From: Burkholderiales bacterium
GTDB lineage: Bacteria > Pseudomonadota > Gammaproteobacteria > Burkholderiales > Burkholderiaceae_C
Reading direction: 5' to 3'
DNA: 64,000 nucleotides
NCBI GenBank assembly: GCA_016223165.1
Contig: JACRPO010000021.1
Coordinates: 56,286 to 120,285, forward strand
Positions within the stretch are counted from its first letter, which is position 1. Each line of letters opens with the position of its first letter. Below are positions 9,513 through 64,000 of this stretch, in pieces. Position numbers and translations under genes: made by a program. Below the pieces are notes generated by a model. It was not told the origin of the DNA. It was given only the letters and a program-made list of their open reading frames with translations, and searched no databases.

Positions 9513-12500
9513 TCAGATTTCCAGCACCTCGCGCGACGGCGCGTCGGCGGGCGGTGCCACGGCCGCATGCGCCGAAGCGGGCAGCCGCTCGGCGAGCAGG
9601 CGGATGGTCGAGGCGTCGAAGACCTCGCGCAGCGGCAGCTTGGCGCCGAAGCCCTCGTCGATGAGGGCGAGCACGCGCGTGAACATCAACGAGTGGCCGC
9701 CGAGCTCGAAGAAGTCGTCGTTGACACCGATGCCGCGCACGCCGAGCAGGTCTTCCCAGATCGCGGCCAGGCGGCGCTCGATCTCGGTGGCGGGCTCCAC
9801 GTAGGCCGTCGACAGGGTCGGGCGCGTGGGAGTCGCGGCCGTGCCCGCGGCGGCTGCAGCGTCCGCAGTCCCGGTCGGTGCGGGGGAAACGAGCCGCGCT
9901 GTGTCGCCGAGTGCCGGCGCCGGAGGATGCCGGATGAGCTCGTGCTGGCGAACGACATCGTAGGTCTCCGCCACGACGCGCCGCCGACGGGACGCCAACA
10001 CGCGCTCGAGCGCTTCGATGCCCATGGCCGGCGCAATGGCCCCGGCCAGGTGCGCCGTCCAGTGCGCGCGCAGCTCGTCCGGCACCGTGAGCCGCGCCGC
10101 CATGCCCACCTCGCGCCACGCGCCCCAGTCGATGGCCACCACGTGTTGCCATGTCGGTGGCCGTTCCGTGCTCTCCACGAAGGCGTCGAACACGGCATTC
10201 GCCGCTGCATAGTCGCATGCGCCCGGCGCCGGCAGGACGGCGTTGACGCTGCTCACCAGCACGACGAGGTCGAGCGGTTCGCGGCTGAGCAACCGGCACA
10301 GGACCTGCAGCCCGGCAACCTTGGGGGCGAACACGGCGCGCGCCTCCTCGGCATTCGAGCGTCGAGCCAGGCTGCCGCGGCCGGCGATGCCGGCGGCATG
10401 GAAGACGCCGTGCAGCTCGCCGAAGCGTGCGCGTGCCGCGGCGAGTGCGTTGCCCATCGCCGCCTCGTCGGCGGCGTCCGCGGTGGCGAGCAGGACCTCG
10501 CCGCCGCGCGCCTCGATATCGCGCACGGCGCGCATCGCCTGCGCCTGGGCGTCGTCGGCGGGATGGCTGGCGATCCAGGCGTCCCATGTCTCCCGGGGGG
10601 GCATGGGCCTGCGTGACGTGAGCACGAGCCGCGCCGCCCATTGCTCGCCCAGCCAGCGGGCGATCGCGAGTCCCATGCCACCGAGGCCACCGGTGAGGAG
10701 ATAGGCGCCGCGGCGCCTGAGTGGCAGCGGGGCGGCGCTGCCGGCCGCGGCGGCAGGCAGGGCCAGGCGCTCGTAGCGGCGCACCCAGCGCCGCCCGGCG
10801 CGGTGCGCCACCTGCGGTTCGATGGCGGCATGCTGCGTTTCGTCCGCGAGCATCGACGCCGCGCGCTCGGCGGCCGCCGGCTCGAGGTCGCTCGCGTCGA
10901 GGTCGACCGTCCGCATCTGCAAGCCGGGAATCTCTCGCGGCAGCACCAGGACCGGCCCGGTGGCGAGCGCCTGCGTCACGCCCTGGGCCGCTTCGCCCAG
11001 CACCGACTCGGCAGCGGCGGTGGCATGCAGCACGCGCATCGGCGCTTCGATCGGCAGGTCGGGCAGCGCCAGGGCCAGGGTCACGAGGCCGTCGTAGCCG
11101 GGCTCGTGCGGCAGCACCGGCCACGCGGCGGCTGCGGCGGCACGCCGCGCCTCCTGTGCGGCGGCGCGGCGCAGGCCCCAAAGGTGCACGACGCCTGCCA
11201 GCGGGGTGCGCGAGGCGATCCCCACCAGGCGTTGCACATCGTCGGCTGAATCGACGCGCACGCGCCAACGGTCTCGGCCGATGGTCTCGAACCGTTCGCC
11301 GGCATCGGCACGCAGCACGGTGCGGCCCCGCCGGGTCAGTTCGTCGACAAGGGACGAGGTCAGGGGGCCCTCGTCACCGAGCACCAGCCAGCGCTCCGCA
11401 GCGTCCCCGACGACGCCGCCGACGCGGGCGGGGATGCCGTCGTCGCGGCTCCAGGTCGGGGCGTAGAACCAGTCGTCGACTCGTGCCGAGCGGTGGATCG
11501 ACGCCGCTGGTGCTGCCTTTTCGCGGCCGCTGCCGGCGGCGGTGACCGGCGATGCCGGTTCGACCGCGTGGCGCTGGCGCTCGAAGGGATAGGTCGGCAG
11601 CGGCACCCGGCGTCGAGCTGGCGCGCCGGCGTCACCGCCGGCCTGCACCGGCGCATGCCACCCGACCCGGCAGCCGGCCAGCCACAGCCGTGCCGTCGCC
11701 TCGAGGAAGAACTCGGCGTCGGGCCGGCTCTCGTTCGGCCTGCGCGTCGAGGCGAAGGCGCGGCGCGGCCCTTCGGCCCCGAGGTTCGCGCGTGCCAGGG
11801 CGGTCAGCGCCTGCCCGGGGCCGACCTCGAGAAACTGCAGCGTCGGGTCGGCCGCCAGCGTGCGCATGCCGGCCTCGAACAGCACCGGGCGGCGCAGGTG
11901 TTCGGCCCAGTATGCGGGTGAGGTGGCCTGCGCCGGCGTGATCCAGGTGCCGGTGACATTCGAGATGAACGGCCTCGCCGGCGGCGCCAGTTCGACGCGC
12001 TCGAGCAACGCGACGAAGGGAGGCACGGCCGCCGCCATCATCTCGCTGTGGAAGGCGTGCGAGGTCTGCAGCGTGCGCGCTTCGATGCCGGCCTGCTGCA
12101 GCCGCGCGACGAGCGACTCGATGGCCTGGGTTGGCCCGGACAGCGTGCACAGGGACGGCGCATTCACCGCCGCCACTTCCACCCTCGGCTGCAGCCAGCG
12201 CTGCACGTCGTTCGCGCCGAGGTGCACCGCGGCCATGCGGCCTGCGGGTTGCTGTTGCATCAGCCGCCCGCGCGCGGCCACGACGGCCAGTGCGTCGCCC
12301 AGCGACATCACGCCGGCCAGGTGGGCGGCGACGAACTCGCCGAGGCTGTGGCCGAGCATGGCGGCCGGCTCGATGCCGTGCGTATGCAGGCATCGGGCCA
12401 GCGCGTACTCGGTGACGAAGAGCGCCGGCTGCGTGATGCGCGTGACGTGCAGCGGGCCGGCGTCGGCCTGGGCGGCGCCGAACAGGAGCTCGCGGATGTC

Positions 12501-14247
12501 CATGGCGAGGTGCGGTTGCAGCAGCGCCGCACAGCGGTCCACCGCCTCACGGTAGGCAGGTTCCGCCTCGTAAAGGCCGCGGCCCATGCCCGCGTACTGG
12601 CTGCCCTGGCCGCTGAAGAGGAAGGCCACCGGGCGCGCCCCGCCCTCGTGCCGTGCAGCGAGCACACCGCTGCGCTGCGGCTCGCGCAATGCCGCGATGC
12701 CCTGCTCGCGCTGCTGCACCACCGCCGCGCGGCGGTGCGCCAGCGCCTGGCGTCCGACCTTCAGCGTGTAGACAACGTCCGCCAGGTCCTGCTCCGGGTG
12801 CGCCTCGAGGTGCGCGGCCAGGCGCTGGCCCACGGCGTCGAGCGCCGCCTCGGTGCGTGCCGACCAGACGAGCAGGTGCGGGCCCGTCGCTGTTGCCCGG
12901 GGCGCGGGCATGGGTGCCTCTTCCAGCACCGCGTGCGCATTGGTGCCACCGATGCCGAACGAGCTGACACCGGCACGCCGCGGCACGCCCGCCGGCGGCT
13001 CCCACACCGCCGCTTCGGGGCTGGCATGGAACGGGCTGGAAGCGAGCTTCAGCGTCGGGTTGGGCTTGGTGAAGTTGACGAGCGGCGGCAACGTGCGGTG
13101 CGTGAGCGCCAGCACCGTCTTGATGAGGCCGGCCACGCCGGCCGCCGCATCGAGGTGGCCGAGGTTGGCCTTCAACGAGCCGAGGCGGCAGAAGGCGACG
13201 TCGGGCGTGTCGGCGCGAAAGGCCTGCGTCAGTGCCTCGATTTCGATCGGGTCACCCAGTGGCGTGGCGGTGCCATGCGCCTCGACGTAGGTGACGCTGC
13301 GCGCCGGCACGCCGGCCAGCGCCTGTGCGGTGGCGATGACTTCGACCTGGCCCTCGACGCTCGGGGCAGTGAAGCCGGCCTTGTCGGCGCCGTCGTTGTT
13401 GACGGCGATGCCGCGGATCACCGCGTGCACGGTGTCGCCATCGGCCAGTGCCTGGTCCAGGCGCTTCAGCAGGACGACGCCGGCGCCGGCGCTGCTGCGC
13501 GTGCCCTGGGCGCCTTCGTCGAAGGGCCGGCAGCGTCCGTCAGGCGAAAGGATCATGCCCTCCTGGTGGAGGTAGCCGCTGCGCTGGGGGAAGAGGATCG
13601 AGACACCGCCGGCGAGCGCCATGTCGCATTCGCCGCGTTGCAGGGCGCGGCAGGCCACCTGCACCGCCACGAGCGAGGTCGAGCAGGCGGTCTGCACCGT
13701 CATGCTCGGGCCCTTGAGCCCGAGCTTGTAGGACACCCGCGTGCACAGGAAGTCCTTGTCGTTGGCGAGCATCAACTGGTAGCCGCCCACGGCGGCGGCC
13801 AGCGCCGGGTTGAGCATGATCCGGCCGTGCAGGTAGGTGTTCATGCTCGCGCCGGCATACACCCCCACCGACTCGGGCAACCCGGAGGTGCCGGCGGCAT
13901 AGCCGGCGTGTTCGAGCGCCTCGGCCGCGCACTCGAGGAAGACGCGGTGCTGCGGGTCGAGCACCTGCGCCTCGCGCGGCGCGTATCCGAAGTGGCCGGC
14001 GTCGAACTCCTCGCAGTGCTCGAGGAAGGTGCCGCGACGCACGTAACCCGCCTGGTTGCGCTGCTCGGCGCTCACGCCGGCCGCATCGAGGTCGGCGTCG
14101 GTGAGCTCCTCGAGAACCTCCACGCCCTCGGACACCTGGCGCCAGAAGTCGTCGAGATCGCGCGCGCCGGGGAAGCGCCCCGCCAGGCCCACCACCGCAA
14201 TGGCGTGCGCCGGCAGGGCCGCGTCGGTGCGAGGAAGGCCGGTCTGC

Positions 14248-14255
<8 letters not shown>
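9513..14255 (-). CDS. Type I PKS module 8: KS-AT(malonyl)-KR-ACP, no thioesterase
   Basis: Start ATG 14255 (MSEQTG), overlapping the NRPS stop; hybrid-type KS (VQTACSTS, HGTATPLGDPIE, NLGH); AT GHSLG + HAFH; KR TGGLGGMG and DYAAAN, no LDD; carrier FFELGGHSL; ends PSREVLEI. Confidence 0.93.
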
Positions 14256-17705
<3,450 letters not shown>

Positions 17706-17709
<4 letters not shown>

Positions 17710-20700
17710 AGGGTGAGCTCCTCCCGCGCCTCGTCGCCTTGATGCGCGCCCGCATCGGCGAAGTAGCCCGCCAAGTGGCCCGCCAGGGCGGCCGTCGTCG
17801 GCCACTCGAAAGCGGCGGTGGCCGGCACCGGCCGGCGCACGGCGGCCTGCAGCCGGTTGCGCAGTTCGACCGAGGTCAGCGAGTCGAGCCCGAAGCTGCT
17901 GAAGGGCTGGTCGTCGACGAGCGAGCGCCCGCCGTCGGGCAGCGCCAGCACCGTGGCCAGTTCGCGCCGTACCAGGGCCACCAGCTGCGCCAGGCGCTCT
18001 GCGGGTGGCAGGGCGGCGAAGTCCAGCGCAGCCGCGCGCGGACCTTCGGCGTGCGCCGCACCCATGCCGGCGCGGGCCTGGGCCACGAGCTCCTGCCAGA
18101 TCGGTGGGGCCGCATTCGACCCCAGTTGCAGCAGCAGCCGGGGCCAGTCCACCGGTGTCACGGCGACATGGGCGAAGCCCTCGCGCAGCACCAGGCCCAG
18201 CGCCTGGTGGCCCTGCGCCGGCGTGAGCGAAGACAGGCCCATGGCGGCCGCGCGGTCCACCGTGCTGCCGCGGGCGGCCATGCCCACGTCCTTCCAGGCG
18301 CCCCACGCGATGCTGCAGGCGGCGTCGTCGTGCACGCGGCGGTGGTGCGTCAGTGCATCGAGGAAGGCGTTGGCCGCGACGTAGTTGCCCTGCCCCGCGG
18401 AGCCGAGGACAGCCGACATCGACGAGTACATCGCGAAGAAGTCCGGCTTCAGGCCGTGGCGCAGCAGCGCCCGGTGCAGGCGCCAGGCCCCGTCGGCCTT
18501 GGGCGCCATCACGGCCGCCAGCCGCTCGCGCGACTGGCGCACGAGCATGCCGTCGTCGAGCACCGCGGCGCCGTGCAGCACGCCGCCGAGCGGCGCGGCG
18601 CTGTCGAGCACGGCGCGCATCACGGCGTCGATGCCGGCGGCGGTGGCGACGTCGGCGGCGACCACCGACACGCTCGCGCCGTCGGCGCGCAGCTTGGCGA
18701 TGACCTGCTGCGCTTGCGCGTCCGGCGCCGATCGTCCGGCCAGCACGAGATGGCGTGCGCCCTCGCCGGCCAGCCAGGCGGCCGCCAGCAGGCCGAGCCC
18801 GCGCAGGCCGCCGGTGACGAGGTAGGTGGCGTCGTCGCGCACCGCATTCGCTGGGCGCCGCGGCACGACGGCATGGCGGAAGACGACGCGTCCGGTGTGG
18901 CGCGCCTGTGCCATGTAGCGGAAGGCCTCGGCCGCCTGCTCGAACGCGAACGTCGTGCAGGGCAGGATGGGCAGCAGCCCGGCCTCGATTTCCTTCAGCA
19001 CGCGCGCGAAGATGCGCCCGACCATCTGCGGCGTGTCGCGTGCGTGGTCGTTGCAGTCGACGACGTGATAGCGGATGCCGCGGTCCAGCGCCGCCACCTG
19101 CTCGTGCGTCCACAGGTTGCGCTTGCCGATCTCGAGGAAGATGCCGTCCGGCGCCAGCACCTCGAAGCTGCGGTCGAGCATGGCGCCGGTGAGCGAGTTG
19201 AGCACGATGTTCACGCCGGCACCGCCGGTGATCCGCATCACCTCGTCGGCGAAGGCCGGGCTGCGCGAGTCCAGCACATGCTGCACGCCCAGCCGCGCCA
19301 GCACGGCGCGCTTGTCGGGGCTGCCCGCCGTCGCGAAGATCTCCGCGCCGGCCCGCCGGGCCAGCGCGATCGCCGCCATGCCGACGCCGCCGGCACCGGA
19401 GTGGATGAGTACGCGCTCGCCCGCCTTCATGCCGGCGATCTCGTTGAGCGTGATGTCGGCCGTGAGGTAGGCGGTGGGGATCGCTGCGCCGAGCTCGAAG
19501 TCGAGCCGCGCCGGCAGCGGCGCCACGAATTCCCAGCGCGTGGTGGCATGGCTGGCGAAGGCGCCGGAGACCATGGCCACGACGCGATCGCCGAGCCGGA
19601 AGCCGCGCACCTCGCTGCCCAGGGCGACGATCTCGCCGGCGCAGTCGCTGCCCAGGCGCTCGATCTCGCCCGGGTACAGGCCGAGGGCGCTCAGCACGTC
19701 GCGGAAATTCAGGCCGCTGGCGCGCACGCGGATCTCGATCTCGGCGGGGCCCGGAGGCCGGCGCTCGGCGGCCGCGATGGCGAGGTTCTCGAGCGTGCCG
19801 CGTTCCTGGATGTGCAGCCGGGTCGGCGCCTCGTCGGTCGGCGGCGCCGTGTGCCGCCGCTGGCGCGCCAGGCGCGCGACGAAGCGCACTCCCTTGCGCA
19901 GCGCGACGCGGCTCTCGTGGCCCGTGGCCGCTGCCGGCGGTGCCGCGCTCATCTCGGCCAGTTCGTCGGCCAGCTGGCGCGCCTCGGCGCTGCTCGTGGG
20001 GCTGGACTGCGGGTCGAGGTCCACGTGGGTGACGCGCAGCTCCGGGTGCTCCAGTGCGGCGACGCGCGCCAGGCCGGCCAGGGGCGCCTGTTCGATGCAC
20101 AGCGTCTCGCTGCCATCGACGGCTTCGGTGCCCGCGGTCACGAAGCACAGCGGCGTCGGCTGGCCGTGCGCCGCCAGGGCCTGCAGCAGCAGCAGTGCCG
20201 CCTCGGTGCCCATGCGCTGGATCATGCTGGGCAGGTCCTCATCGTCGCGCAGCGCCGGCACGGCGAGCGGCCACAACGACACGATGCCGGCCAGCGGCGG
20301 GCCCTCGTTGTCGAGGAGTCGCCGGTGGTCGCCCGGCGAGCCGGGATCGATCTCGACGACCCCCGGCGCGGCAGCATCGAACGTGCCGCCCGCGACGACG
20401 CGCGTCACGGCGCCGCCGCGGCGAACGATCTCGGCGGCGACGCGCTCGCCCCGGCCCTGGCCCTCGTCGAGCACGAGCCAGCGGCCTTGCAGGCCGTGCT
20501 CTGCCGCGGCGAGCGGCTGGCTGTGCCAGGCGACCGCGTACAGCCAGTCCGCCGCCTGTGCATCGGCGCGCTGGCGGAACATGTCGCGGCTGGCGCGGCG
20601 GCAGCGCAGCCCTTCGACCTGCATCACCGTGGCGCCACCGGCATCGACGATGGTGATGTCGATGAGCAGCATGTCGCCGCGAGTGCGCGGCGCGCGCACC

Positions 20701-23700
20701 GCGGCGTGGCTGGTGAGGCGGCCCGAGGGCGGCACACCCCAGCGGATGCGCTCCACCCCGATCGACAGGTACATGCGTTCGTCTTCCGCGCCGGGCAGCG
20801 AGGCGATGGCGACCGCCGAGGCGTGGAAGCACGCGTCCAGCAGCGCGGGATGGAAGGCGTACCGCTCGCCCTCGGCCTGCACGGAGGGGTCGGCCTCGAC
20901 CTCGCCGAGGCCCTCGCCGGCACCGCCCACGGCGCTGCGCATGACGTTGAACGAGGCTCCGAAGTCGGCGCCGCGGCTGCGTGCCTGCTCGTAGAAGGCG
21001 GCGATGTCGACGGCCGTGGTGCAGCGCGAGCGTGCCGCAGCGAGGTCTGGCGCCGCCGGCGCAGGGTCGGCCTGCGGCCTGCCGATGAGGGCGCTCGCAT
21101 GCAACGTCCAAGGCGACTCCGCGCGCGCGGCGTCGCGGCTGAAGACGCGCACGCGGGTCGCGGCGGCGGCGCCCTCGCCGTCCACCAGCACCTGCATGAG
21201 GCGCTCTTCGTCCGGCCGCAGCACCATCGGCTCGCCGACTTCCACGTGCTCGATGGTGGACAGGGCGGATCCGTGCACCTGGCGGGCTGCGGCCAGCGAG
21301 ATCTCGAGATAGGCCGTGAGCGGCATCACCGCTTCGCCGCCGATGCGATGGTCGACCACCCAGGCCGGATTGCCCGTGTTCAGGGCGCGTTCGAAGGCCG
21401 CCGCGACGCCGGCCACCGGAATGCGCGCGCCGAGCAGTTCGTGCACGGGCCGGCCCGACGTGCTGGATGCGCGGCGCGCCGGCTTGCGGTAGTCGATCAG
21501 GTAATGCTGGCGCTGGAACGGCGTGCTCGGCAGGCGCACGCTGCGCCGCTCGCCACGCCGCGTGTAGGCGGCCCAGTCGATGCGGCCGCCGCGCACGTGC
21601 AGGCGCGCGACGCTGTCGGCGATCGTCTCGATGCCGCTGCGCTGGCGCCGCAGCGACGCGTGCCAGGTGAGCGCGCCGGCGCCGGCCGTGGCCACAGCAC
21701 CCAGCGTCTGCTGCGCCAGGCCGATCAGCGTGGGATGCGGGCCGATCTCGACGCAGGCCTGCATCCCGGCGCCGGCCAGCGCCTTCACGCCGGCCTCGAA
21801 ATCGACGGCTTCGCGCACGTGTCGGCACCAGTACTCCGGCATGCGCGCGGCCCACTCCGACCACTCGAGCGTGCGGCCGGTCAGGCTGGAGATCCAGTTC
21901 AGCTGCGGTTGGGCATGTTCGACGCCGGCCGCGACGCGACGGAATTCCGCCACCATCGGCGCCATCAGCGGCGAATGGAAGGCGTGCGACACGGCAAGGC
22001 CCTGCGTGCGCAGCCCGAGTGCCGCCAGGCGCGCCGCGGCGCCTTCGACCGCGGCGCGCGCGCCGGCGATCACCCAGCTGCCCGGGGCGTTGCGGGCGGC
22101 GATGGACATCTCGGCCGCGTTCGCCTCGACCTCGCGCGCCACTTCGCGCGCCAGTTGTCCGGCTTCACCCTGCACGGCGACCATCACGCCGCCTGCGGGC
22201 AGCGCCTGCATCAGGCGGCCGCGCGCCGCGATGAGCCGGGCGCCGTCCTCGATGCTGAACACCCCCGCCACCGCGGCGGCGGCGAACTCGCCCACGCTGT
22301 GGCCGATGACGGCGCCGGGCTCGACCCCCCAGCTGCGCCACAGCGCCGCCAGCGCCACCTGCAGCGCATAGAGCGCCGGCTGGGTGCAGCCGGTCTGGTC
22401 GAGCAGGCCAGCGGACTCCTTGAACAGCAGTTGCAGCAGCGGCCGCGGCAGGCTGGCGTCGAGCACCGCCGCGCAGCGCTCGAGCGCGGCGCGGAACACG
22501 GGCTCGGTGTCGTGCAGCTCGCGCCCCATGCCCACGTACTGCGAGCCTTGCCCCGTGAACAGGAAGGCCGTGCGCACGCGCGCCGCGGCCTGGCCGCGCG
22601 CGATGGTCGGCGCGGCGGCGGCCGCGACCTCGCCATCGGGGCCCACGGCGCGAAGTTGCGCCACCAGCGCGGCGACGTCCGGGCCGACCACGGCCAGCCG
22701 GTGCACGAAGTGGGCGCGGCCGGTCGCCGCCGTGGCACACACGTCGGCCAGCTGTTCCGGCGTCACGGTGCCGAGCTGTTCGAGATGGTCGGCGTACCGG
22801 CGGGCGACGTCGCCGAGCGCCGCTTCGCTGCGGCCCGAAAGCGGCAGCACGAACAGCGGCCGCGGCGCCGGCGGCGAGGCCCCGGCAGGCGTGACCTCTT
22901 CGAGGATGGCGTGGGCATTCACGCCGCTGAACCCGAAGGCGCTGACACCGGCACGACGCGCCGCGCCGTGCGCGGGCGCCCAGTCGTGCAGGCGGGTGCT
23001 GACGCGCACCGGCATGCGGTCCCAGGGGATCGCCGGCGACGGCTCGCGCACATGCAGGCTGGCCGGCAGCTGCCTGTGCTGCAGCGCCAGCACGACCTTC
23101 ATCATGCCGGTCACGCCGCTGGCCGCCTCGAGGTGGGCGAGGTTGCTCTTCACGGAGCCCACTTCGAGCGGCTGCGCCGCATCGCGGCCTTCGCTGTACA
23201 CCGCGGCGAGCGCCTCCACCTCGATCGGGTCGCCGAGCGAGGTGCCGGTGCCGTGCGCCTCGACGTAGCTCACGTCGGCCGGCGCCAGCCGCGCCGCGGC
23301 GAGCGCCTGCCGCAACACCGCCTGCTGCGCGATGCCGTTGGGCACGGTGAGGCCGCTCGAGTGCCCGTCCTGGTTGATGGCCGAGCCGCGGATCAGTGCC
23401 AGCACGTTGCGGCCCTTGGCGCGCGCCACGGAGAGGCGCTCGAGCACGACCAGGCCGCAGCCTTCGCCGCGCACGAAGCCGTTGGCCGAGGCGTCGAAGG
23501 CCTTGCAGCGCCCGTCGGGCGACAGCATGCCCCACTTGGAGATCATGACGTAGGCCTCGGGCGACATCATGACGTTGACGCCGCCGGCGACCGCGAGCTC
23601 GCTCTCGCCGTTGCGCAGGCTCTGGCAGGCCGTGTGGATGGCCACGAGCGACGACGAGCAGGCCGTGTCGATGGCCATGCACGGCCCCTGCAGGCCGAGC

Positions 23701-24320
23701 GTGAACGAGACCCGGCCGGCGGCCGCGTTCAGCGCCGTGCCGGTGGCCAGGTAGATGTCGCTGCGTGCCGGGTCTTCGACGTCGATGCGGTTGGAGTAGT
23801 CGGTGCCGGTGATGCCGACGAAGACGCCGGTGCGCGTGCTGTCGAGGCTGTCGGGCGCGATGCCCGCATCTTCGAGTGCCTCCCAGGTCACCTCGAGCAG
23901 CAGGCGCTGCTGCGGGTCGAGCGCGCGTGCCTCGCGCGGCGAGATGCCGAAGAACGTCGGCTCGAACCCGGCGATGTCCTGCAGGAAGCCGCCGGCCTTG
24001 GTGCGCGACTTGCCCGGCGCTTCGGGGTTGGGGTCGTAGAAGGCATCCACGTCCCAGCGGTCGGCGGGGATCTCGCCGACCATGTCGAGCCCTTCGCTGA
24101 GCACCTTCCAGTAGCCGGCGATGTCGACCACGCCGCCGGGCAGCCGGCAGGCCATGCCGACGATGGCGATGGGTTCGTGCGCAGCGGCCTCGGCGGCGTC
24201 GAGGCGGGCCTGCAGGCGATCGATGGCCGCCAGCGCGTTGTGCAGCAGGTGGCGGCGATCGCCCCCGGCCGCAACCGCGACGCCGGCCTGAGAGGAGGGT
24301 TCGGAGCGATCCGCGGACAT
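17706..24320 (-). CDS. Type I PKS module 7: KS-AT(malonyl)-DH-ER-KR-ACP
   Basis: KS DTACSSS/HGTGT/NLAH; AT GHSVG + HAFH; DH HRIGGEAVMP and DACFH; ER GLNFRD, LIHSGAGGVG; KR VLDD, GQGNY; ACP GLDSL; C-terminal tail AREELTL. Start 24320 preferred over 24335. Confidence 0.93.
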
Positions 24321-24344
24321 GTCTGCCACCTTCAAGGAATCAAC

Positions 24345-25249
24345 TCAGTCGGCCGCGCCGCCGGGCGCGGGCGCGAGCGCGGGCCGCTGCCGCACGGCAG
24401 GATCCAACCACCACAGCGCCATCGCCACCGCCACGACGACCACGGCGCCGAGGGTGGACGACCACGACCACGCATGCTGCCCGGCCAGCCACGCCGCGCC
24501 GATGCTGGGCAGCAGCTGCAGGCCGGTGGCCGGGGCGGTGAGCGAGACCGGTGCGGCGGCGGCCATGCGCTCCAGCGCATAGAGCGCCCCGAAGCCGAGC
24601 ACGCCGACGCTGACCATTCCGGCCAGGCCCATTGCGTCGGGCCAGACCCAGCGGCCCGGCAGCAGCGGCAGCATCAGCACCACCACGCCGGCGGCCGTGT
24701 AGAAGAGGTTGGCACGCAGCCGCTCGTGTCGCAGCGCGCGCGTGGCGACGACGAACAGCACGAAGGAAAGCGTCATGCCGAGCGCCAGCGCCACCATGGT
24801 GGCCGTGGGCAGGCGCTCGTGGTGGAAGAACAGGTTCGCGCCCGCGCAGGCCGCGGCGGCCGCGATCCACAACGTCGCCGGGGCCCGTTCACCCCCGAGG
24901 ACGTGGGCACACAGCAGCAGCAGGATGGGCGAGCTCCAGAACACCGCCATCAGCGTGTCGGGAGCCATGTTGCGCTGCATGGCCAGCAACCAGCAGATGG
25001 GCATGGCCACCATCATCGCGGCGCGTGAGACCTGGAGCCAGGGCCGGGCCGTGCGCACGAGCTGCATCGGTTCGCGCCGGCCCCAGAGCAGGCCCATCAG
25101 CACCAGCTGGGCCGCGAAGCGCACCCAGACGACCTGGAGGGCGGAGTAGCGCTCGATGAGCAGCCCGGCCACGAGCTCCTCGCCTGCCCACAAGGTCACG
25201 CACACCAGCTTCCAGAGCAGGCTCTCCCGCCCGGGGCTCAGCGCTGTCT

Positions 25250-25253
<4 letters not shown>
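24345..25253 (-). CDS. DMT/EamA-family transporter (302 aa)
   Basis: About 10 hydrophobic segments; EamA-like SALQVVWVRF, FWSSPIL...LGGER; ATG overlaps the PKS6 stop (ATGA at 25250-25253). Confidence 0.82.
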
Positions 25254-32110
<6,857 letters not shown>

Positions 32111-40298: not shown

Positions 40299-43200
40299 CT
40301 CGGTTTGTCCAGCCGCTCGAGCAGCAGCAGTTCGATCTCTTCGTCGCTCATCTGCGCGACGCGTTCGGCGCCCAGCGGCGCGTTCGCCGCCGGTGCGGCC
40401 GGTGCGGCAGTAGCGGCAGCTGCGGCAGTTGCGGCAGCTGCGATGTCCGCCGCAGGCCTTGCCCCGCTTGCCGCCGTGGCCGGCGCGACGGCGGGCGTGT
40501 TGCCGGGCACCAGGGGCTGCAGGTAGGTCGCGAGCGCGTCCACGGTTGGGTGGTCGAACATCAGCGTCGCCGGCAAGGGGCGCGGCAGGCCGAGCAGCTT
40601 CGAGAACCGGTTGCGCAGCTGCACGGCCATCAGCGAATCCATGCCGAAGTCCATCAGGCGGTCGTGGCGACCCGGCGCCTCGTCGGGGCCGAGGCGCAGC
40701 ACCGCGGCCACGGCGTCGCGCACCATGTCGCGCAGCAGTTCGTGCTGCTCCTCGGGCGTGGCTTCGCGCAGGCGCTGGCGCAGCGCCTCGTGGCTGGCCT
40801 CATGGGCGGATGGGTGGGCGGCCTGATGGGCAGCTTGGTGGCCGCCCGGGTCGGCATTCGCTCCGGCGCCATTCAGCGCGCCCGCCACCGACGTCGCACC
40901 GCCGTTGGCCGGCGCCATCGAACTCCGGCCCGTGCTGCCGGCCAGCCAGCCCGCGATCACCTGCTGGCCGAGGGCTGCTGCCTCGTTCGCGGGCGGCGGC
41001 CATGCGCCGGCCTCGCTGAATCCTGCATCACGCAGCGCGCGCAGCCAGACGGGGGCGGGCAGCAGCGGGTTGTCGGTGCGCAGGTCGTCGGCGAAGTGCT
41101 GCCAGCCTTCGATGAGGCCGGTGGTCATGTCGTACCACGCCAGGTGCTCGGTCGACTCGACCAGCAGCAGCACGCCGCCGGGCGCGAGCAGCGAGCGGAT
41201 GCTGGCCAATGCGTGCCGCAGGTCGCGCGCCGCGTGCACGGCATTGGCCGAGATGACGAGGTCGAACGAGGCCGGCGCGAAGCCCTGCGCGGCCACGTCG
41301 CGCTCGAGGTCGAACTCGGCGAAGCGCATGAACGGGCAGTGCGCGAACTTCGTGCGCGCGAGGTCGAAGAAGACCGGCGTGACGTCGGTGTAGCAGTAGC
41401 CGAGCGTCCCCGGATGCTCGGCATGCCAGGCGGCCAGCGGCGGCATCAGCGCCGCGGTGGTGCTGCCGGTGCCGGCGCCGATCTCGAGCACGCGCAGCGG
41501 CGCGCCCAGCGGCCGCGCGGCGAGCAGGGCCTCGATGCCGCTGGTGGCCAGCGCGTTGACATAGCGCATCGGCGAGGACCGCTGGTAGATGCCCTCGGCG
41601 AGTTCGAACGAGCCGCCGGGAAAGAGCGTCTCGAGCGGGCTCTCGCGCCCGCCGATGACGTCGCCCAGCAGGCGGCCGCAATGCAGCATGTACTCCAGCT
41701 GCGCGGGGTTGTCGGCCAGCGCCGCGCGCGTCTTCGCCAGCCATTGCTCGAGTTGCGGGTCGGCGAGCGGCCGATCGGCCACGAAGCGCAGGCCTTCGGC
41801 GTGCGGCTCCTCGCGCAACTCGCCGCCGGCGGCCAGGCGCTGCAGCCAGCGCCCGAGCAGGTGGGCGTAGGTGTCCTTGGCACCCAGGCGCCGGCGCACC
41901 GACTCGACGTCGTGTGTTTCCCCGGGCGTGGCGAACAGGCCGGCGTCGCGCAGCACGGTGGCCGCGTGCGCGACGGTGAGGCGCTCGAGCACCGCCCAGC
42001 GCTCGGCGTAGCCCTGCACGTTGGTGCCGATCGGCGCCTGCTCCGATTGCCGCGCCAGCGCCGCCCCCATGCGCTGCCACACATGCGCGGCCGCGGCCGG
42101 GCCCGAGGCCGCTGGCACCGTGCTCGCCGAGACCTGATCGAACCAGTGCCGGCGGCGCTGGAAGGGCATCACCGGCGCGGCCACGCGGCGGCCGGGCCGC
42201 CCGGGGCCGCGTGCGAAGGCGGCCCAGTCGACGGCGGCGCCGTCCACGTGCAGGCGCTGCAAGGCTTCGACGAGGTCGGTGCTGTCGGCGGCGTCACGGC
42301 GCAGCGTCGGCAGCCAGTGCACGGCGCTCTCCGCTGGGGCTTCCTCGACGGCCAGGCCCAGCAGCACCGGGTGCGGGCCGATCTCGAGGACATGCGTCAC
42401 GCCCTGCGCCAGCAGCGTGTGCAGCCCGTCGGCAAAACGCACCGGCGCGCGCATCTGGCGTTGCCAGTAGCTCGGCTGCGCCATCTCGTCGGCGGCGGCG
42501 AGCGTGCCGGCCACGTTGCTCACGATGGCGCAGTGCGGCGTGCCGAAGCGCACGCCGGCCAGCGCCTCGCCGAGCGGGGCCAGCGCCGGCTCGACGAAGG
42601 AGGAATGGAAGGACTGCGAGATGCGCAGCGCGCGCCAGCGCGTGCCCTCGGCATCGAGCCGGGCACCGAGGCGTTCGATGGCGGCGCGTGCGCCGCTCAC
42701 CACCACCTGGCGCGCGCCGTTGAAGGCGGCGAAGTCGAGCCCGGCACCCGGGGCCATGCCGAGCGCAGCGAAGTGCGCGCGCAGGGCGGCTTCGTCGGCC
42801 TGCACCGAGATCATCGCGCCATCGCCTGGCAGGTCGCGTGTGAGCTGGCCACGCCGCGCGAGCACGCGCAGCGCGTCTTCGAGCGGGAAGATGCCGGCCA
42901 CGCAGGCCGCCGCGTATTCGCCGAGGCTGTGGCCCAGCACGACGGTGGGTGTGATGCCGAACGAGCGCAGCAACGCGGCCAGCGCCACCTCGAGCGCGAA
43001 GAGCGCCGGCTGCGCACAGGCCGTGTCGTCCAGGCGCGCGGTGGTGGCCGCGTCACCATAGAGCAGGTCGACCAGCGGCACGCCGAGCAGGGGGTCGATG
43101 ACGGCGGCGCAGCGCTCGAGGGTCTCGCGGAAGACCGGGGCGCGCTCGCAGAGTTCGCGGCCCATGCCCGGGAACTGCGCACCCTGCCCGGTGAACAGGA

Positions 43201-44961
43201 ACGCCACTTTCGGCGCCGTCGATGCGGCCCGGCCCGCGAGCAGCCCCTCGGGCGCGGCGCCACCGAGCCAGTGGGCGAGGCCGGACTGCAGCGCCGACGC
43301 GTCCGCACCGCGCAGCGACAGGCGCTGCGGCAGGCGGGCGCGGCCCGTGTTCGCTGTGAAGCAGAGGTCGTCCAGCGCCCCCGGCGCGTCAAGCTCGGCA
43401 AGCCGCGCCTGCCATGAACGGGCCAGCGCGTGCAGCGCCGGCTCGTCGCGCGCCGAGAGGTTGAGCAGGTGCGGCGGGCGCAGCGGGCGCAGCGGGAGCA
43501 GCGGGCGCGTGGCCGCGTCGGCTGCGGGCTCGCCCGTCTCTTCCGCCGGTGCCGCCGCCGAGGCAGGCGGCGCCTCTTCGAGGATCACATGCGCGTTGGT
43601 GCCGCTGAAGCCGAACGAGCTGACACCGGCACGCGCCGGCGCCGGCCCGGCCGGCCAGGGCCGCAGCGTCGTCGGCACCGCCAGCGGCAGCTGCGCCCAG
43701 TCGAGCAGCGGGTTCGGGTTGCGGAAGTGCAGGTGCGGCGGCACCTGGCGGCGGCGCAGCGCGGCAATGGTCTTGGCCACGCCGGCCAGCCCGGCGGCCG
43801 CCTCGAGATGGCCGAAGTTGGTCTTGCAGGAGCCCACCCACAGCGGCCGCTCGGGCACGCGGCCGGCGCCGAGCGCCGCGGCCAGTGCCTGCAGCTCGAT
43901 CGGGTCGCCGAGCGAAGTGCCGGTGCCGTGCGCTTCGACGACATCGATGTCGGCCGGCGCCAGCCCGGCCTGCGCGAGCGCGGCGCGGATCACCGCCTCC
44001 TGCGCCGGGCCGTTGGGTGCGGTGAGGCCGCCGCTGCGTCCGTCCTGGTTGACGGCCGAGCCGCGCACGAGGGCCAGCGCACGCGCGCCGGCCGCTCGCG
44101 CATCCTTGGCGCGCTGCAGGACCAGCATTACCGCGCCCTCGCCGCGGCCGTAGCCGTCGGCGGCGGCGTCGAATGTCTTGCAGCGGCCGTCGGGCGCCAT
44201 CATGCGGGCCTTGCTGAACGCGATGTGCGCCTCGGGCGTGAGGATGAGATTGACGCCCGCGACCAGGGCGAGGTCGCACTCGCCGCTGCGCAGGCTCTGG
44301 CAGGCCAGGTGCAGCGCCACGAGCGACGAGGAGCAGGCGGTATCGATCGACAGCGCCGGCCCCTGCAGGCCGAGCACGTAGCTCAGCCGCCCGGCCACCA
44401 CCGCGAGGCTGCCGCCGGAGCCACCGTAGGCGTCGATATGCTCGGCCTCGCGCCACATCATGCGGCCGTAGTCGCTGTTGCCCACGCCGACGAAGACGCC
44501 GGTGCGGCTGCCGGCGAGCGAGTCGGGCGCGATGCCCGCGTCCTCCAGCGCATGCCACGCGGTCTCCAGCACGAGCCGCTGCTGCGGGTCCATGCGCTCC
44601 GCCTCGAGCGGGGCGATGCCGAAGAAGGCGGCGTCGAAGCCGGCCACGTCGTCCAGGAAGCCGCCCTCGCGCGTGCTCATCGTGCCGGGGTGGTCGGGGT
44701 CGGCGTCGTGCCAGGCGTCGATGTCCCAGCGCTCGCGCGGCACCGGCGCGATGGTGTCGACGCCCTCGGCCAGCACCCGCCACAGCGAGGCTTCGTCGTG
44801 CACGCCACCGGGCAGCCGGCACGACATGCCGACGACGGCGATCGGCTCGCGCGCGTCAAGCTGGGCCGCCTCGGCGGCGGCCAGGCGCGAGCGCAGGTCG
44901 CGGATCTCCAGCAGCGCCTGCTTGACCGGCGAGAGGGCGGCGCGTTCGTCGCCGGGCAAGG

Positions 44962-44965
<4 letters not shown>
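40295..44965 (-). CDS. Type I PKS module 4: KS-AT-cMT-ACP, no reductive domains (1556 aa)
   Basis: Start ATG 44965 (MTLPGDERAALSPVKQALLE), overlapping the PKS3 stop; KS DTACSSS; AT GHSLG + ISQSFHS; MT TLFPGGS, EIGAGTGSTT, ANAVH; ACP GMDSL; no KR NADPH motif present. Confidence 0.92.
40781..40840 (-). repeat. 12-bp-period His repeat (HQAA-HQAA-HPSA-HEAS-HEAL) in the PKS4 MT-ACP linker
   Basis: Translation shows His every fourth residue, five times. Confidence 0.75.
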
Positions 44966-51620
<6,655 letters not shown>

Positions 51621-51624
<4 letters not shown>

Positions 51625-54600
51625 CGCGCATCTCCGAGCGGCTCGGGCAGGCCGGGCGCCGCTTCGCCCAGGCCTTCGAGCTCGGCCATCAGGGCGCGGC
51701 GCACCTCGTCGTCGGAAAGCGATTCGACGGCTTCGGGTGGTTCGGTCGCGCCGGCAGGGGCGGGCGTGCTCGCCGCCGGCCAGGTGGCGTTGGGTGCCGC
51801 GGCCGCTGTGGCGTCGTCGGGTGGGGACAAGCCTTCGAGCAGGTGCTCGGCGAGTGCCGCCGCGGTCGGATGGTTGAAGGTGGTGGTCGAGGGCAGCGCG
51901 GCACCCGTCAGCCGGCCCAGGCGGCGGCGCAGCTGCACGGCCATCAGCGAATCGAGGCCGAGATCGAAGAAGCCGCGCGCCGGGTCGACCTCCTGCGGGC
52001 CGGCAAGCCCGAGCACGGCGGCCAGCTCGGTGCGCACGAGCGTGGCGAGCTTGTCGCGGCGTGCGCGCGGCGCGAGCCCGGCGAGCAGGGCACGCAGCGT
52101 GGCGCCGGCCGCTTCAGCCCCGGGCTCCGCGGCCTCGTCGCGGGTGGCCGGCGGCGCCAGCAAGGAGAGAAAGGCGCGCGGGCCGTGCACCTGGTAGGCC
52201 TGGCCGGCGGTGGCGGCATCGAGATCGGCCACCATGCACTGGGGCTCGCGGGCGACCACCAGCCGCGCCAGCATGTCGAAGGCTTCGGCATCGTCCATGG
52301 TGCGGAAGCCGAGCTGGTGGATGTCGTCGTGGCGCTCGCGGCCGAGCAGGCGGATCTCGCTCCACGCGCCCCACTCGACACAGGTGGCGGGCAGGCCGAG
52401 CGCGGCACGTTGCCAGGCGAGCGCGCCGAGGAACTGGTTGGCTGCGGCATAGCCGGCCAGGCGACTTGCACCGAACAGCGTCGTGCCGGAAGAGAACATC
52501 ACGAACAGGTCCAGCGGCCGCTCGCGCGTGAGCTCGTGCAGCACCACGGTGCCCTGCACCTTGGCGTGCAGCAGGGCGCGCAACGCGTCGGCCGACAGGT
52601 CGGCGAGCGCGTGGTAGGCGAGTGCCGCAGCCGCGTGCACCACACCGCGCAAGGGCTGGCCCGCGCCCTCGAGACGGTCGACGAGCGCGCGCATCGCGTC
52701 GGCGTCGGCCACATCGGCGCGTTCGAGCCAGAGGGCCACGCCGGCCGCCTGCATCTCGGCGCGCAGCATCTCGAACGAGGTGTCTCCGGCCGGCGGGCCG
52801 CCGCGCCCGAGCAGCACGATGCAGCGCGCGCCACAGGAGGCGAGCCAGCGCACGATCTTCGGCCCCAGGCCGCCGTAGCCGCCGGTGACGAGGTGGGCGC
52901 CGGACCCGTCCAGCGCCAGCCGGGCCGCCGGCGGGGCTTCACGCCGCGCCAGCCTCGCGACATGCCGTGCGCCGGCACGGAACGCGACTTGATCCTCGCC
53001 GTCGTGCGCCGCGAGCTGGGCGAGCAGCGCCGCCACGGCGCCGGCCTCGTCGGCAGCGGGGTCGAGATCGACCAGGCCGCCCCAGCATTGCGGCACCTCG
53101 AGCGCAACCGAGCGGCCCAGGCCCCAGAGCAGCGCCTGGGCCGGCACGGGGGCCGCATCGCCGGCGTCGATGCGCTGCGCGCCGCGCGTCAGGAGCCACA
53201 GGCGCGCCCCGCGTGCCGCGAGGGACAAGTGCTGAAGGCCGAGCAGGGCGCCCACGGTGCCGTTGTCCACGGCCGCGGACAACGCTGCCGCCGACGAATC
53301 GGCGCTGGCATCGAGCGCGCCGCAGTGCACGAGGCCGGTGAGCGCCGGGGTCGGTGGCGGCGAGGCGGCCGCGCTCGCGAAGAGCTCGCAGGCCGCGCCT
53401 TCGTCCCGCAGCGCCTGGGCCAGCCGCTCGCCGAAGCCGCCAGGCTCGCCGACGACGCGCCACGCGGTGCCCTCGAAGCGGCGGGTCGCGGGCCCGGGCG
53501 CAACCGAGTGCGACATCGCCTGCGGCAGCGCGAGCGAGGGCGAGAGCGGCATCGAAAGCGACATCGAGAGCGGCAGTGCCGGCCACTGCATCTCGTAGCA
53601 GGCGAGCCCTTCATCGCGCCCCGCAACCGGCGCGTCGCGCCCGGTGACGCCGAAGGCGAGTGCAGCCGCATCGGGGGCCTCGAGCCAGTGGCGCCGCCGC
53701 TGCCACGGATACGCGGGCAGGGCCACGACACGCCGGCCGGCATCACGCCGCGCCGCCCAGTGAATGGCGGCGCCGGCTTCGTAAAGCTGCCCGAGGCCGG
53801 CCAGCAGCGCCGCACGCGCGGGCTGCGACCGGCGCAGCGAGGCGGCGATGGCCGCGCGCGCACCGGCCGCCTCCGCGACGGCGGCGATGCCGGCACCCAG
53901 CGCCGGGTGGGGCCCGATCTCGAGGAAAGTGTTGAGGCCGGCTTCGAGCAGGCGCGCCACCGCCGGCGCGAAGCGCACCGTCTCGCGCACGTTGCGGCCC
54001 CAGTACGCCGCCCCGAAGTCGCCGGTGCCGGCCCACTGGCCGGTGACGGTGGAGACGATGGGCAGCGTGGCCGGGCGCGGCTGCAGCGTGCCCAGCGCCG
54101 CGACGATGGCCGGCACGAAGGCGTCCATCTGCGCGCTGTGGAAGGCGAACTCGACCGCGAGCTCGCGCGCCGCGATGCCGCGTTGCGCGAGCCGCGCGAC
54201 GAGCGCCGCCAGCGCGCCGGGCTCACCGGCGACCACGGTCGAGGCAGGGCCGTTCACCGCCGCGATGGACAGCGCGCTGCCGGACGGCGGCAGCTCGGCC
54301 AGCAAGGCGGCTTCGCTGCACTCCACCTGGGCCATGCGACCGCGGCCGAAGGCTGCCTGCATGGCGCGCGAGCGGTGCAGCACGACCCGCACCGCCTCGA
54401 CGAGCGTGAGCACGCCGGCCACGTACGCCGCGGCGACCTCGCCGACGCTGTGCCCGACGACGGCACCGGGCTTCACGCCCCAGGAGCGCCAGAGCGCAGC
54501 GAGGGCCACCTGCACGGCGAAGATCGCCGGCTGCGCCACGTCGGTGGCGGCCAGGCGCGCGCCCTGTGCGGCATCGGTGAGCACCGGCAGCAACGGCCAG

Positions 54601-56458
54601 CCGGCGTGCCGTTCGAACAACGAGGCCACTTCCTCGAGTGCGGCGCGGAAGACCGGCTCGGTGTCGAAGAGCTCGGAGGCCATTGCCGGCCACACGCCAC
54701 CCTGGCCGGTGAAGACCCAGACGACCTGCGCGTGCGCATCGTCCGCGGCGCTATCGGGCAGCGCCGCGATGCGCGCTTGCAGCCGCGCGGCAACCGTGCC
54801 CGCCGTGTCGCCCACGACGGCCACCCGCCAGGGGTGGTGGCTGCGCCGTGTGGCCGCACAGTGGGCGGCATCGGCGAGCGCGTCAGGTGGCAGCGCCGCC
54901 AGCGCGTCGCTGTGCTCGCGCAGGGCCTGGGCCAGCGCGGCGGCGCTGCGCGCCGAGACGACGAAGAGCTCTTCCCGTTGCGGTGCCGCAGTCGCTGTGG
55001 AGGCCGCGGGGGCTGCGTGGCCGGACACCACGTCGGCCGCCTCCTCGAGCACCACGTGCGCGTTGGTGCCGCCGAAACCGAACGAACTCACCGCGGCGAC
55101 GCGCGGCAGCGGGCCGCCCGGCCAGGGCGTCAACGTGGTGGGGATCTCGAAGGGCGTGCCCTCGAGGCGCAGGTGCGGGTTGGGCTTCGTGAAGTGCAGG
55201 TTGGCCGGCACCGCGGCGTGGCGCAGGCAGGCCACGGCCTTGAGCAGGCCGGCGATGCCGGCTGCGCCTTCGAGGTGGCCGATGTTGGTCTTCACCGCGC
55301 CGAGCCAGCAGCGGTGCTGCGCATCGCGGCGCGGGCCGATCGCGGCTGCCAGCGCCTCCACCTCGACCGGGTCGCCCAGCGGCGTGCCGGTGCCGTGCGT
55401 CTCGACGAGGCCGACGCGCTCGGGCGCGATGGCGGCCAGCGCGAGCGCGCGCCGCACCACCGCTTCCTGCGCCGGGCCATTGGGGGCGGTGAGGCCGTTG
55501 CTGGCCCCATCCTGGTTCACGGCGGAGCCGGCGATCACGGCGAGCACCGTGTCGCCGTCGCGGCGCGCATCGGCCAGGCGCTTGAGCACCACCAGGGCCG
55601 CGCCTTCGCCGCGCGCGATGCCGTTGGCCGAGGCGTCGAAGCTGGCGCAGCGGCCCTCGGGCGAGAGGATCTGCAGCTTGCTGAAGGCGAGGCTCGCGCT
55701 CGGCAGCAGCATCAGGTTCACGCCGCCGGCGAGCGCGAGGTCGCACTCGCCGCCGCGCAGGCTCTGGCAGGCCAGGTGCACGGCCACCAGCGAAGAGGAG
55801 CAGGCCGTGTCCACGGCCATCGAAGGGCCGCGCAGGTCGAAGGTGTAGGAGATGCGGTTGGCGAGGATGCTGTGCGCCGACCCGGTGGCCGAGTGGCTCT
55901 CGAGGCCGCCGCGCTGCGCCAGCTGCAGCAGCCAGTAGTCGCTGCTGTGGCTGTGCGCGCCCACGAAGACGCCGGTGGAAGTGCCGGCGAGCTGGTCGAC
56001 CGGCTGGCCGCCGGCCTCCAGCGCTTCCCAGGCCAGTTCGAGCAGCAGGCGCTGCTGCGGGTCCATCAGCGCCGCCTCGCGTGGCGAGATGCCGAAGAAG
56101 CCGGCGTCGAACTGCTCGATCCCCTCGATGAAAGCGCCGCGGCGCGAGACCATGCGGTTGGGTGCGAGCGGATCGGCGTCGAGCAATGCCTCGCCGCCCC
56201 AGCGCTCGGCCGGCACGTCGGTGACGGCATCGCGGCCTTCGACCAGCATCTGCCAGAACGCCTCAGGCGTGTCGGCGCCGCCGGGCAGGCGGCAGGCGGC
56301 GGCGACGATGGCGATGCGCTCGGGCCTGTTGCCGACGCTCGCACCGGCACTGGCGCCGGCGCCCGCCGCAGGCGCCGCGGCCGCGCCCTGCGCCAGGCGG
56401 CGCTCGAGCAGCGCACGCTTGGCCGGCGAGAGGTGGGCCAGGCGGTCGGTCGCTTCGG

Positions 56459-56462
<4 letters not shown>
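51621..56462 (-). CDS. Type I PKS module 2: KS-AT-KR-ACP (1613 aa)
   Basis: Start ATG 56462 (MTEATDRLAHLSPAKRALLERRL), overlapping the PKS1 stop; KS DTACSSS; AT GHSVG + VEFAFHS; KR TGGYGGLG, no LDD (AAAALAY), LAGYAAAN; ACP GLDSL. Confidence 0.93.
53541..53576 (-). repeat. 12-bp in-frame tandem repeat x3 (LPLSMSLSMPLS) in the PKS2 AT-KR linker
   Basis: cgagagcggcat / cgaaagcgacat / cgagagcggcag. Confidence 0.8.
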
Positions 56463-63309
<6,847 letters not shown>

Positions 63310-63313
<4 letters not shown>

Positions 63314-63999
63314 TGCGCGACGGCACCAGCCGGCTGGGCAGCGAGCGGCGCCAGCAGATGCGCCAGCTCGGCAACGAGCTGGCCGCGCACCGCCGCGTCG
63401 TTGAAGTAGAAGTGCCCGCCGGCGAACTGCCGCACCTGCACGGGGCCATGCGTGTGCTCGTGCCAGGGCGCCAGCACCTCGCGCTGGGCGCGCGTGTCGC
63501 CGGTACCGCCGAACACGGTGATGGGGCAGTCGAGCAGGGGGCCGGGCAGGTGGCGGTGCGTCTCGATGGCGGTCATGTCGGCGCGCATGGCCGGCAGCAG
63601 CAGCTCGAGGATGTCGCGATGCTGCAGGATCTCGGCCGGGATGCCGCCATAGCGGCGGTCGAGCTCGGCGATGAAGGACTCGTCGGGCAGCGGGTGCAGC
63701 GGCGCGTCGGGCTCGCTCAGGTGCGGCGCGCGCCGGGCGGAAACGACGAGGCGTGCCGGCCCGGGCAGGCCTTGCGCGCGCAGCGCGCGCGCCACCTCGT
63801 AGGCGACGAGGCCACCCATGCTGTGGCCGAAGAACGCGTACGGGCGGTCGAGCTGCGGCGCGAGGTTCGGCAGCAGTGCCTCGACGATGGCCTTGACGGA
63901 CTTCAGGGGCGGTTCGCGCAGGCGGTTCTCGCGGCCCGGCAACTGCACCGCGAGGACCTCGATCGAGGATGGCAGGGCGAGCGCGAACGGGCGATACAC
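63310..63999 (-). CDS. Type II thioesterase (GrsT/RifR-like), 5' end outside the window
   Basis: VQLPGRENR, FFGHSMGG nucleophile, MRAD, GGHFY; starts mid-protein at the window edge; stop overlaps the PKS1 start. Confidence 0.92.
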
Positions 64000-64000
64000 C

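Follow-up and report, generated by a model that had tools for sequence, protein, structure and literature searches.

The 64,000-nucleotide stretch of Burkholderiales DNA analysed here (contig JACRPO010000021.1, positions 56,286 to 120,285; hereafter the window) probably encodes a functional-looking orphan type I polyketide synthase/nonribosomal peptide synthetase (PKS/NRPS) assembly line of the cis-acyltransferase (cis-AT) kind, seated on the chromosome next to gltA in a groundwater member of the Rubrivivax/Azohydromonas group and representing one version of a family whose modules have been shuffled. Eight single-module cis-AT PKS genes (pks1 to pks8) and one NRPS gene occupy the minus strand from 63310 to 9513 (Table 1). 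Pfam scans gave one module per protein, as the original prediction, made from the sequence alone, had described. Each PKS protein matches PF00109/PF02801, PF00698 and PF00550 (eight of eight), that is, it combines a ketosynthase (KS), its own AT and an acyl carrier protein (ACP) domain in one polypeptide; with Pfam E-values of 1e-9 to 1e-100, chance is excluded for the domain calls. The line does not read as trans-AT: every module has an in-line AT, and the cluster has no discrete AT gene.

The machinery also appears intact, in agreement with what had been proposed. The KS Cys/His/His residues are kept in eight of eight PKSs, the AT GHSxG motif with its Ser likewise, and the carrier Ser in all nine proteins, as G(L/M)DS in Pks1 to Pks7 and as GGHS in the NRPS and Pks8. 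Each megasynthase gene is a single uninterrupted open reading frame (ORF) with no internal stops or frame breaks. The genes are packed as expected of one coupled operon: 4-base overlaps occur at seven junctions (thioesterase/pks1, pks1/2, pks2/3, pks3/4, pks4/5, pks6/eamA and pks7/NRPS), the NRPS and pks8 overlap by 8 bases, and the only gaps measure 34 bases (pks5/pks6) and about 24 bases (eamA/pks7). A transporter gene of the EamA family, absent from the original prediction, sits within this operon, its start overlapping the pks6 stop; the exact protein is found on Logan contigs of the same groundwater runs.

Several observations outside the domains argue for a maintained, resident locus. 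Identical copies of the proteins are found in four metagenome runs from groundwater and on an NCBI contig of 336,658 bp, an independent assembly gave the same 1153-aa NRPS call, and the identity of the sequence in four independent metagenome assemblies supports our reading. Collinear intact relatives at 53-76% identity imply purifying selection. The difference in G+C content (75% versus 67%) had hinted at recent horizontal acquisition; this was not supported, as the G+C content at third codon positions is 0.89-0.93 in the PKS genes and the same in host genes, which argues for long residence and not for a recent and possibly dead import. The distance from the end of gltA (5159) to the end of pks8 is 4.35 kb, close to the 4 kb first estimated, and the predicted sdhC-D-A-B-sdhE-gltA order is present. 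A Burkholderiales host, likewise proposed earlier, is supported by the 90%-identity cluster of GltA, which includes Rubrivivax sp. and Azohydromonas aeria.

Predicted product and the domains behind it

Our product prediction assumes collinear operation. KS1 would take an acyl starter R directly, because no loader was found. Module 1 would then add a methylmalonyl-like unit with full reduction, module 2 a malonyl unit with ketoreduction, module 3 a fully reduced malonyl unit, module 4 a C-methylated malonyl unit with its keto group kept, module 5 a C-methylated and fully reduced malonyl unit, module 6 a malonyl unit that is C-methylated, ketoreduced and dehydrated to a methyl-branched olefin, and module 7 a fully reduced malonyl unit. 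The NRPS would amide-link the chain to glycine, and Pks8 would add a last malonyl unit with ketoreduction. The expected ACP-bound product is R-CH2-CH(Me)-CH(OH)-(CH2)3-CO-CH(Me)-CH2-CH(Me)-CH=C(Me)-CH2CH2-CO-NH-CH2-CH(OH)-CH2-CO-S-ACP, an N-acyl 4-amino-3-hydroxybutyrate lipid-like polyketide, which would be released by a trans-acting thioesterase as the acid or possibly the lactam and exported by the EamA and/or SMR protein. Most units of the backbone proposed earlier agree with this structure; module 6, previously drawn with a hydroxyl group, does not, and the end of the line is uncertain owing to the docking tail of Pks8 (see below).

The extender units were assigned from AT motifs. The AT of Pks1 (GHSMG and VASH, with a RIEFIQP box) is methylmalonyl-like, and the malonyl form HAFH is found in Pks3, Pks5, Pks7 and Pks8; the motifs FAFH (Pks2), QSFH (Pks4) and LAAH (Pks6) are non-canonical, in malonyl-like contexts. 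Modules 4 to 6 retain the S-adenosylmethionine motif (LEIGAGTG) of an embedded C-methyltransferase (cMT), and these intact domains are the reason for placing methyl branches there. All five dehydratase (DH) domains, that of Pks6 included, retain their catalytic His as well as the DxxxQ/H Asp, so that module 6 would more likely yield CH=C(Me) than CH(OH)-CH(Me). The NADPH motif is kept in all four enoylreductase (ER) domains. Among the ketoreductase (KR) domains, those of Pks3, Pks5 and Pks7 have LDD, that of Pks1 has LAD, and in those of Pks2, Pks6 and Pks8 both LDD and the A-type Trp are absent.

In the NRPS, the condensation (C) domain reads DHIVCDG, with the second His of HHxxxDG present. 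Its adenylation (A) domain, read against an LgrA alignment at positions that we take to correspond to the GrsA-numbered ones, has the code DILQLGMIW, which indicates glycine as the probable substrate, as had been proposed. The KS of Pks7 reads NLAH, and that of Pks8 reads QTACSTS and HGTAT, the usual form for a KS that follows an NRPS.

The His-type ketoreductase of Pks5

The KR of Pks5, on which the original prediction was silent, has NHSAAN where the other KRs have NYAAAN, and its His (codon 32988-32990) aligns with the catalytic Tyr of the DEBS and Lsd14 module structures. The codon is identical in contigs of four sequencing runs at 6-87x depth. His is present in 82 of the 107 nearest homologous KR fragments and also in the Pks5 orthologues of collinear relatives. 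The agreement of the four run assemblies and the frequency of His among homologues rule out an assembly error or an inactivating lesion. Among all loci fetched, the His form is confined to ER-containing modules. The search with the KR-ACP segment of Pks5 as the query returned only proteins shorter than 760 aa, Pks5 itself not being among them, and in the literature we found nothing specific on His-type KRs. Judged by its distribution, the His form appears to be a conserved subtype and not a lesion. Without activity of this KR, the chain would carry a second keto group, from module 5.

The start of the line

The ORF at the window edge (63310-63999) had not been recognised as a standalone protein. 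Its fragment matches a full 260-aa protein at 100% identity and has the motifs of a type II thioesterase (TEII), namely a GHSMGG nucleophile and candidate Asp and His residues in GGTGD and GGHFY. Sequence beyond position 64000 was obtained from a contig of the same groundwater runs (L085; L-numbers, here L005, L085 and L088-L136, denote contigs or loci of relatives fetched for comparison). Directly upstream of the TEII gene it encodes a Sfp/HetI-like phosphopantetheinyl transferase (PPTase) of 222 aa with AASDHPPT_N and ACPS domains, followed by a divergent gene of the PF00144 beta-lactamase family and a GntR regulator. The full-length protein and the PPTase gene preceding it rule out that the ORF is the C-terminus of a further PKS. 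The sequence examined beyond 64000 holds only these four genes and no PKS module. Pks1 is therefore the first module, and the R left open at the chain start in the original formula would stand for a starter unit only. The PF00144 gene, of the beta-lactamase/esterase family (L085 1424-2365), is also present in L088 and L089 and is absent from a Rubrivivax metagenome-assembled genome (MAG) described below; it is possibly an acyl-transfer or release enzyme.

The KS of Pks1 begins at residue 22, and the protein has no loading didomain, fatty acyl-AMP ligase, ACP or N-terminal docking helix; nor does the cluster contain a dedicated loading module or a starter-activating enzyme. The top PDB match of Pks1 is mycocerosic acid synthase (MAS; 1031 bits), an iterative, fully reducing PKS primed by acyl-CoA. 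Both have the KS-AT-DH-ER-KR-ACP order, and neither has a loader. However, MAS is also the top PDB match of the internal module Pks7, with an even higher score (1064 bits), so that the likeness reflects shared architecture and says nothing specific about priming; we therefore rejected it as specific evidence that Pks1 is a MAS-like iterative lipid synthase. Unlike MAS, Pks1 has a C-terminal docking tail for Pks2. An exact look-up of the Pks1 protein gave no match.

Docking and the end of the line

The docking elements agree with the gene order. Pks1 to Pks6 end in acidic helical tails, and Pks2 to Pks7 begin with coiled coils, including an LSPxKxALL-like motif in Pks2 and Pks4 to Pks6. The tail of Pks7 (...DEAREELTL, with its last residues encoded at 17709-17729) precedes the sole TubC_N domain, of the beta-hairpin type, which forms the N-terminus of the NRPS (PF18563, E = 2e-15). 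Upstream PKSs here and in unrelated loci share an acidic tail of the form xRE(E/V)(L/F)x(L/I), as in TubB/TubC-type docking; PKSs upstream of TubC_N-bearing NRPSs in unrelated loci end in REDFQL, KEEIRI and WEEIEL. Unlike in the usual TubB/TubC-type pairing, the same tail, as judged by likeness of sequence, is also found at the end of the final PKS, which lacks a partner downstream: Pks8 stops about 45 residues past its ACP with ...SREVLEI (encoded at 9516-9536), similar to the AREELTL of Pks7. The tail is conserved as AREVLEI in the Rubrivivax MAG and as TREVLEL in L095, while the preceding linker varies. Pks8 has no thioesterase (TE), reductase (R) or C release domain, and the sole available TE is the standalone TEII.

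The strongest alternative to our reading is that the line continues past Pks8, an NRPS with a beta-hairpin docking domain, and perhaps a releasing alpha/beta hydrolase, being encoded elsewhere and adding another amino acid after the 4-amino-3-hydroxybutyrate unit. The resemblance of the Pks8 tail to those of PKSs that precede TubC_N-type NRPSs speaks for such a continuation, as does the conservation of the tail next to a variable linker. Five relatives whose Pks8 homologues are about 48-52% identical (L096, L097, L098, L105 and L136) have a second gene with docking, C, A and peptidyl carrier protein (PCP) domains immediately after the pks8 homologue, and in L097 this NRPS gene is followed by genes for a 262-aa protein and an alpha/beta hydrolase. 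The orphan tail and the extra NRPS in these distant relatives mean that the true product may be longer, and it would seem that the lineage of the window lost or relocated a terminal NRPS. On the other side, a hidden Markov model built from docking domains found one copy only in the window and 5 kb beyond it, i.e., no second TubC_N, and three related lineages likewise lack the extra NRPS at this locus. We regard continuation past Pks8 as possible but unlikely. Release by the conserved and translationally coupled TEII would be the simplest model. We hold it rather doubtful that the Pks8 tail is functional in the fuller sense, either recruiting an unlinked terminating NRPS (a split line) or docking back on the glycine NRPS for programmed reuse, and that, separately, the His-type KR of Pks5 is an active, previously undescribed subtype that occurs only in modules with an ER. 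The NRPS of a Hydrogenophaga MAG has two TubC_N-type docking domains in tandem at its N-terminus (L005 5999-6350); the gene before it codes for a 320-aa thioesterase and not for a PKS.

Weighing the readings

Six points weigh against a functional line that works as we propose. Release domains of the TE, R or C type are missing from its last module; the conserved docking tail of Pks8 apparently calls for a beta-hairpin-docking NRPS that the cluster does not have; the identity of the starter, without a loading module, is a guess; three AT motifs (Pks2, Pks4 and Pks6) are non-canonical; the KR of Pks5 does not have the canonical Tyr; and collinearity is an assumption, the product being predicted here from genes alone.

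Some of these points could be taken to mean that what is left is a remnant, decaying or silent, with no defined product any more. The terminal NRPS and hydrolase of more distant relatives are missing, Pks5 does not have the KR Tyr, there is no loader, and the homologue in Piscinibacter aquaticus is split into many ORFs. Against this stand ORFs that run without interruption over about 54 kb (75% G+C) and keep all core catalytic residues, the existence of intact relatives, and the predominance of the His-type KR among its nearest homologues; decay is therefore, in our view, improbable. Reuse of the glycine NRPS and Pks8, with the Pks8 tail docking back on the NRPS to give repeated glycine-acetate units before TE release, is very improbable: Pks7 and Pks8 do share a tail type and only one matching docking domain is present, but the proposal is inference throughout, the relatives account for the tail through a separate NRPS, of which it would be a remnant or to which it would be a partner, and iterative reuse of an NRPS-PKS pair is, to our knowledge, rare in cis-AT lines.

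Relatives and known systems

A Rubrivivax sp. MAG (GCA_016789865.1; JAEUPC010000109.1, a 60-kb contig) has the same locus, GntR-PPTase-TEII-PKS ... NRPS-pks8-SMR-methyltransferase-EgtB-YHS-patatin-gltA-sdh; its first module has no ER, unlike Pks1. The JGI contig Ga0209172_10003925 (L095), whose GltA is 98.6% identical, carries PKS-EamA, two fused NRPS modules, pks8 (71%), SMR (89% identical, same position), methyltransferase, EgtB, YHS, patatin and gltA genes. Its two NRPS modules (2617-9444) share a single reading frame and still have a docking-domain-like segment between them, which points to a recent fusion of genes in this very close relative. Logan contigs L088-L090 share the operon head with Pks1 at 65-76% identity, although module 2 of L088 carries a cMT, unlike Pks2. 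L093 and P. aquaticus GCA_007994965.1 (L092) are collinear over pks4-pks7, and a collinear orphan cluster is present in the MAG GCA_964268075.1. Identity in the collinear relatives is 57-76% for Pks1, 44-74% for Pks4 to Pks7 and 62-71% for Pks8, and L092 and L095 both have an embedded EamA gene at the corresponding place. In L092 (1877303-1898892) frame changes split the PKS genes into about 12 ORFs, owing either to indels of a long-read assembly or to degradation of the cluster in this cultured species. On this comparative evidence the cluster appears to be not a one-off but a resident, diversifying family with varying module content.

The original prediction considered such lines unusual for Burkholderiales. 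This view has to be softened: collinear clusters in relatives, including those of the Rubrivivax MAG and the JGI contig at this very gltA locus, show that the line is not unusual for the lineage, and the enacyloxin pathway also uses monomodular cis-AT proteins. No characterised match emerged either, in provisional agreement with the original prediction. Among 185,579 species-representative genomes, the best match to the NRPS is 57% identical, in the Hydrogenophaga MAG, and the next ones (at most 49%) are in Acidobacteriota, cyanobacteria and other phyla. A literature search on polyketides of this lineage, collinear relatives included, or on the predicted end group revealed no product. In Aquincola, NRPS/T1PKS regions had no or weak (14%) antiSMASH known-cluster matches (PMC11092185). 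Thus, the pathway is likely uncharacterised, a provisional assessment.

Among known systems, the curacin (Cur) and jamaicamide (Jam) lines are similar. Like these, the cluster has one module per protein, embedded cMT domains, and acidic C-terminal and coiled-coil N-terminal docking tails. The CurL-like KS-AT linker (PF22621) is present in eight of eight PKSs, and among the PDB matches of Pks7 the structure of CurL KS-AT ranks second (904 bits). Jamaicamide also ends with an amino acid and one malonate. However, Pfam scans of all cluster ORFs revealed no GNAT or ACP loader, HMG-CoA-synthase cassette, halogenase, terminal sulfotransferase-TE or JamQ-like cyclising C domain. Unlike the cyanobacterial and myxobacterial lines, this one resides in a betaproteobacterium, and no match to its NRPS in a cyanobacterial or other non-Burkholderiales genome exceeds 49% identity.

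Neighbouring genes

Table 1. Genes of the assembly line and its surroundings in the window, from the operon head to gltA
Feature	Coordinates	Strand	Domains or evidence
Type II thioesterase (TEII), standalone	63310..64000	-	PF00975, E = 3e-41; window holds C-terminal 229 of 260 aa
pks1, 2283 aa	56459..63310	-	KS-AT-DH-ER-KR-ACP
pks2, 1613 aa	51621..56462	-	KS-AT-KR-ACP
pks3, 2220 aa	44962..51624	-	KS-AT-DH-ER-KR-ACP
pks4, 1556 aa	40295..44965	-	KS-AT-cMT-ACP, without reductive domains
pks5, 2705 aa	32181..40298	-	KS-AT-DH-cMT-ER-KR-ACP
pks6, 2298 aa	25250..32146	-	KS-AT-DH-cMT-KR-ACP
EamA/DMT-family transporter, 302 aa	24345..25253	-	PF00892, 28.1 bits versus curated cut-off 28.2
pks7, 2204 aa	17706..24320	-	KS-AT-DH-ER-KR-ACP
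NRPS, 1153 aa	14248..17709	-	TubC_N-type dock (~17536-17688)-C-A-PCP
pks8, 1580 aa	9513..14255	-	KS (post-NRPS type)-AT-KR-ACP
SMR-family small multidrug efflux protein, 116 aa	9047..9397	-	116 bases 3' of pks8
S-adenosylmethionine methyltransferase, 207 aa	8297..8920	-	Matches PCMT/UbiE/ArsM-type models
EgtB	6889..8262	-	TIGR03440, 555 bits versus cut-off 360; PF12867 (DinB_2) and PF03781 (FGE-sulfatase)
YHS-domain protein, 232 aa	6161..6859	-	YHS (seleno)protein family
Patatin-like gene	5209-6108	+	
gltA	3849-5159	+	

The SMR protein is a candidate exporter or self-resistance gene product. The methyltransferase-EgtB-YHS trio may or may not belong to the cluster: its role may be either polyketide tailoring or a separate thiol or selenium pathway. 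The trio is kept syntenic in the Rubrivivax MAG and in L095, where its members are 77-87% identical versus 71% for pks8. No EgtD (Methyltransf_33) gene adjoins egtB, the 207-aa methyltransferase being of another type. On the other side, sdhCDAB, sdhE, gltA and the patatin-like gene are encoded on the plus strand, and a scan of 5100-9700 for promoters and terminators found none. The region downstream of gltA is entirely different in A. aeria. About 5 kb downstream of gltA there, past a TctC gene and an ABC-transporter operon, lie Methyltransf_33 (EgtD-like), glycosyltransferase and SelD-like (AIRS) genes (L094 6445-9497). This set resembles a selenoneine-type set; in the window, that side of gltA is taken up by the patatin gene, the EgtB trio and the PKS block.

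Gene finding

Genes and domains were called with Pfam scans, and the true genes from 64000 down to 6161 are all on the minus strand. Candidate starts were set by overlap with the upstream stop; those of the NRPS and pks8 were confirmed by separate gene calls on Logan contigs. Because the G+C content is 67-76% across the window, six-frame ORF lists are crowded with long antisense artefacts. Plus-strand ORFs of up to 2429 aa (e.g., 17739-25028) run antisense to the PKS genes without support from any domain; such ORFs are by-products of the 75% G+C content.

Implications

In most respects the cluster is a standard genome-mining lead of a well-known type, and it leaves current understanding unchallenged. 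If expressed, it would yield a new methyl-branched polyketide-glycine lipid from freshwater and groundwater Burkholderiales, which are under-explored. The docking tail without a partner and the widespread His subtype of the KR are the sole features that exceed what such mining ordinarily yields; both are directly testable and may be of some use to PKS engineers. Module-shuffled variants fixed at one chromosomal locus would, in turn, amount to a natural experiment in module gain and loss.

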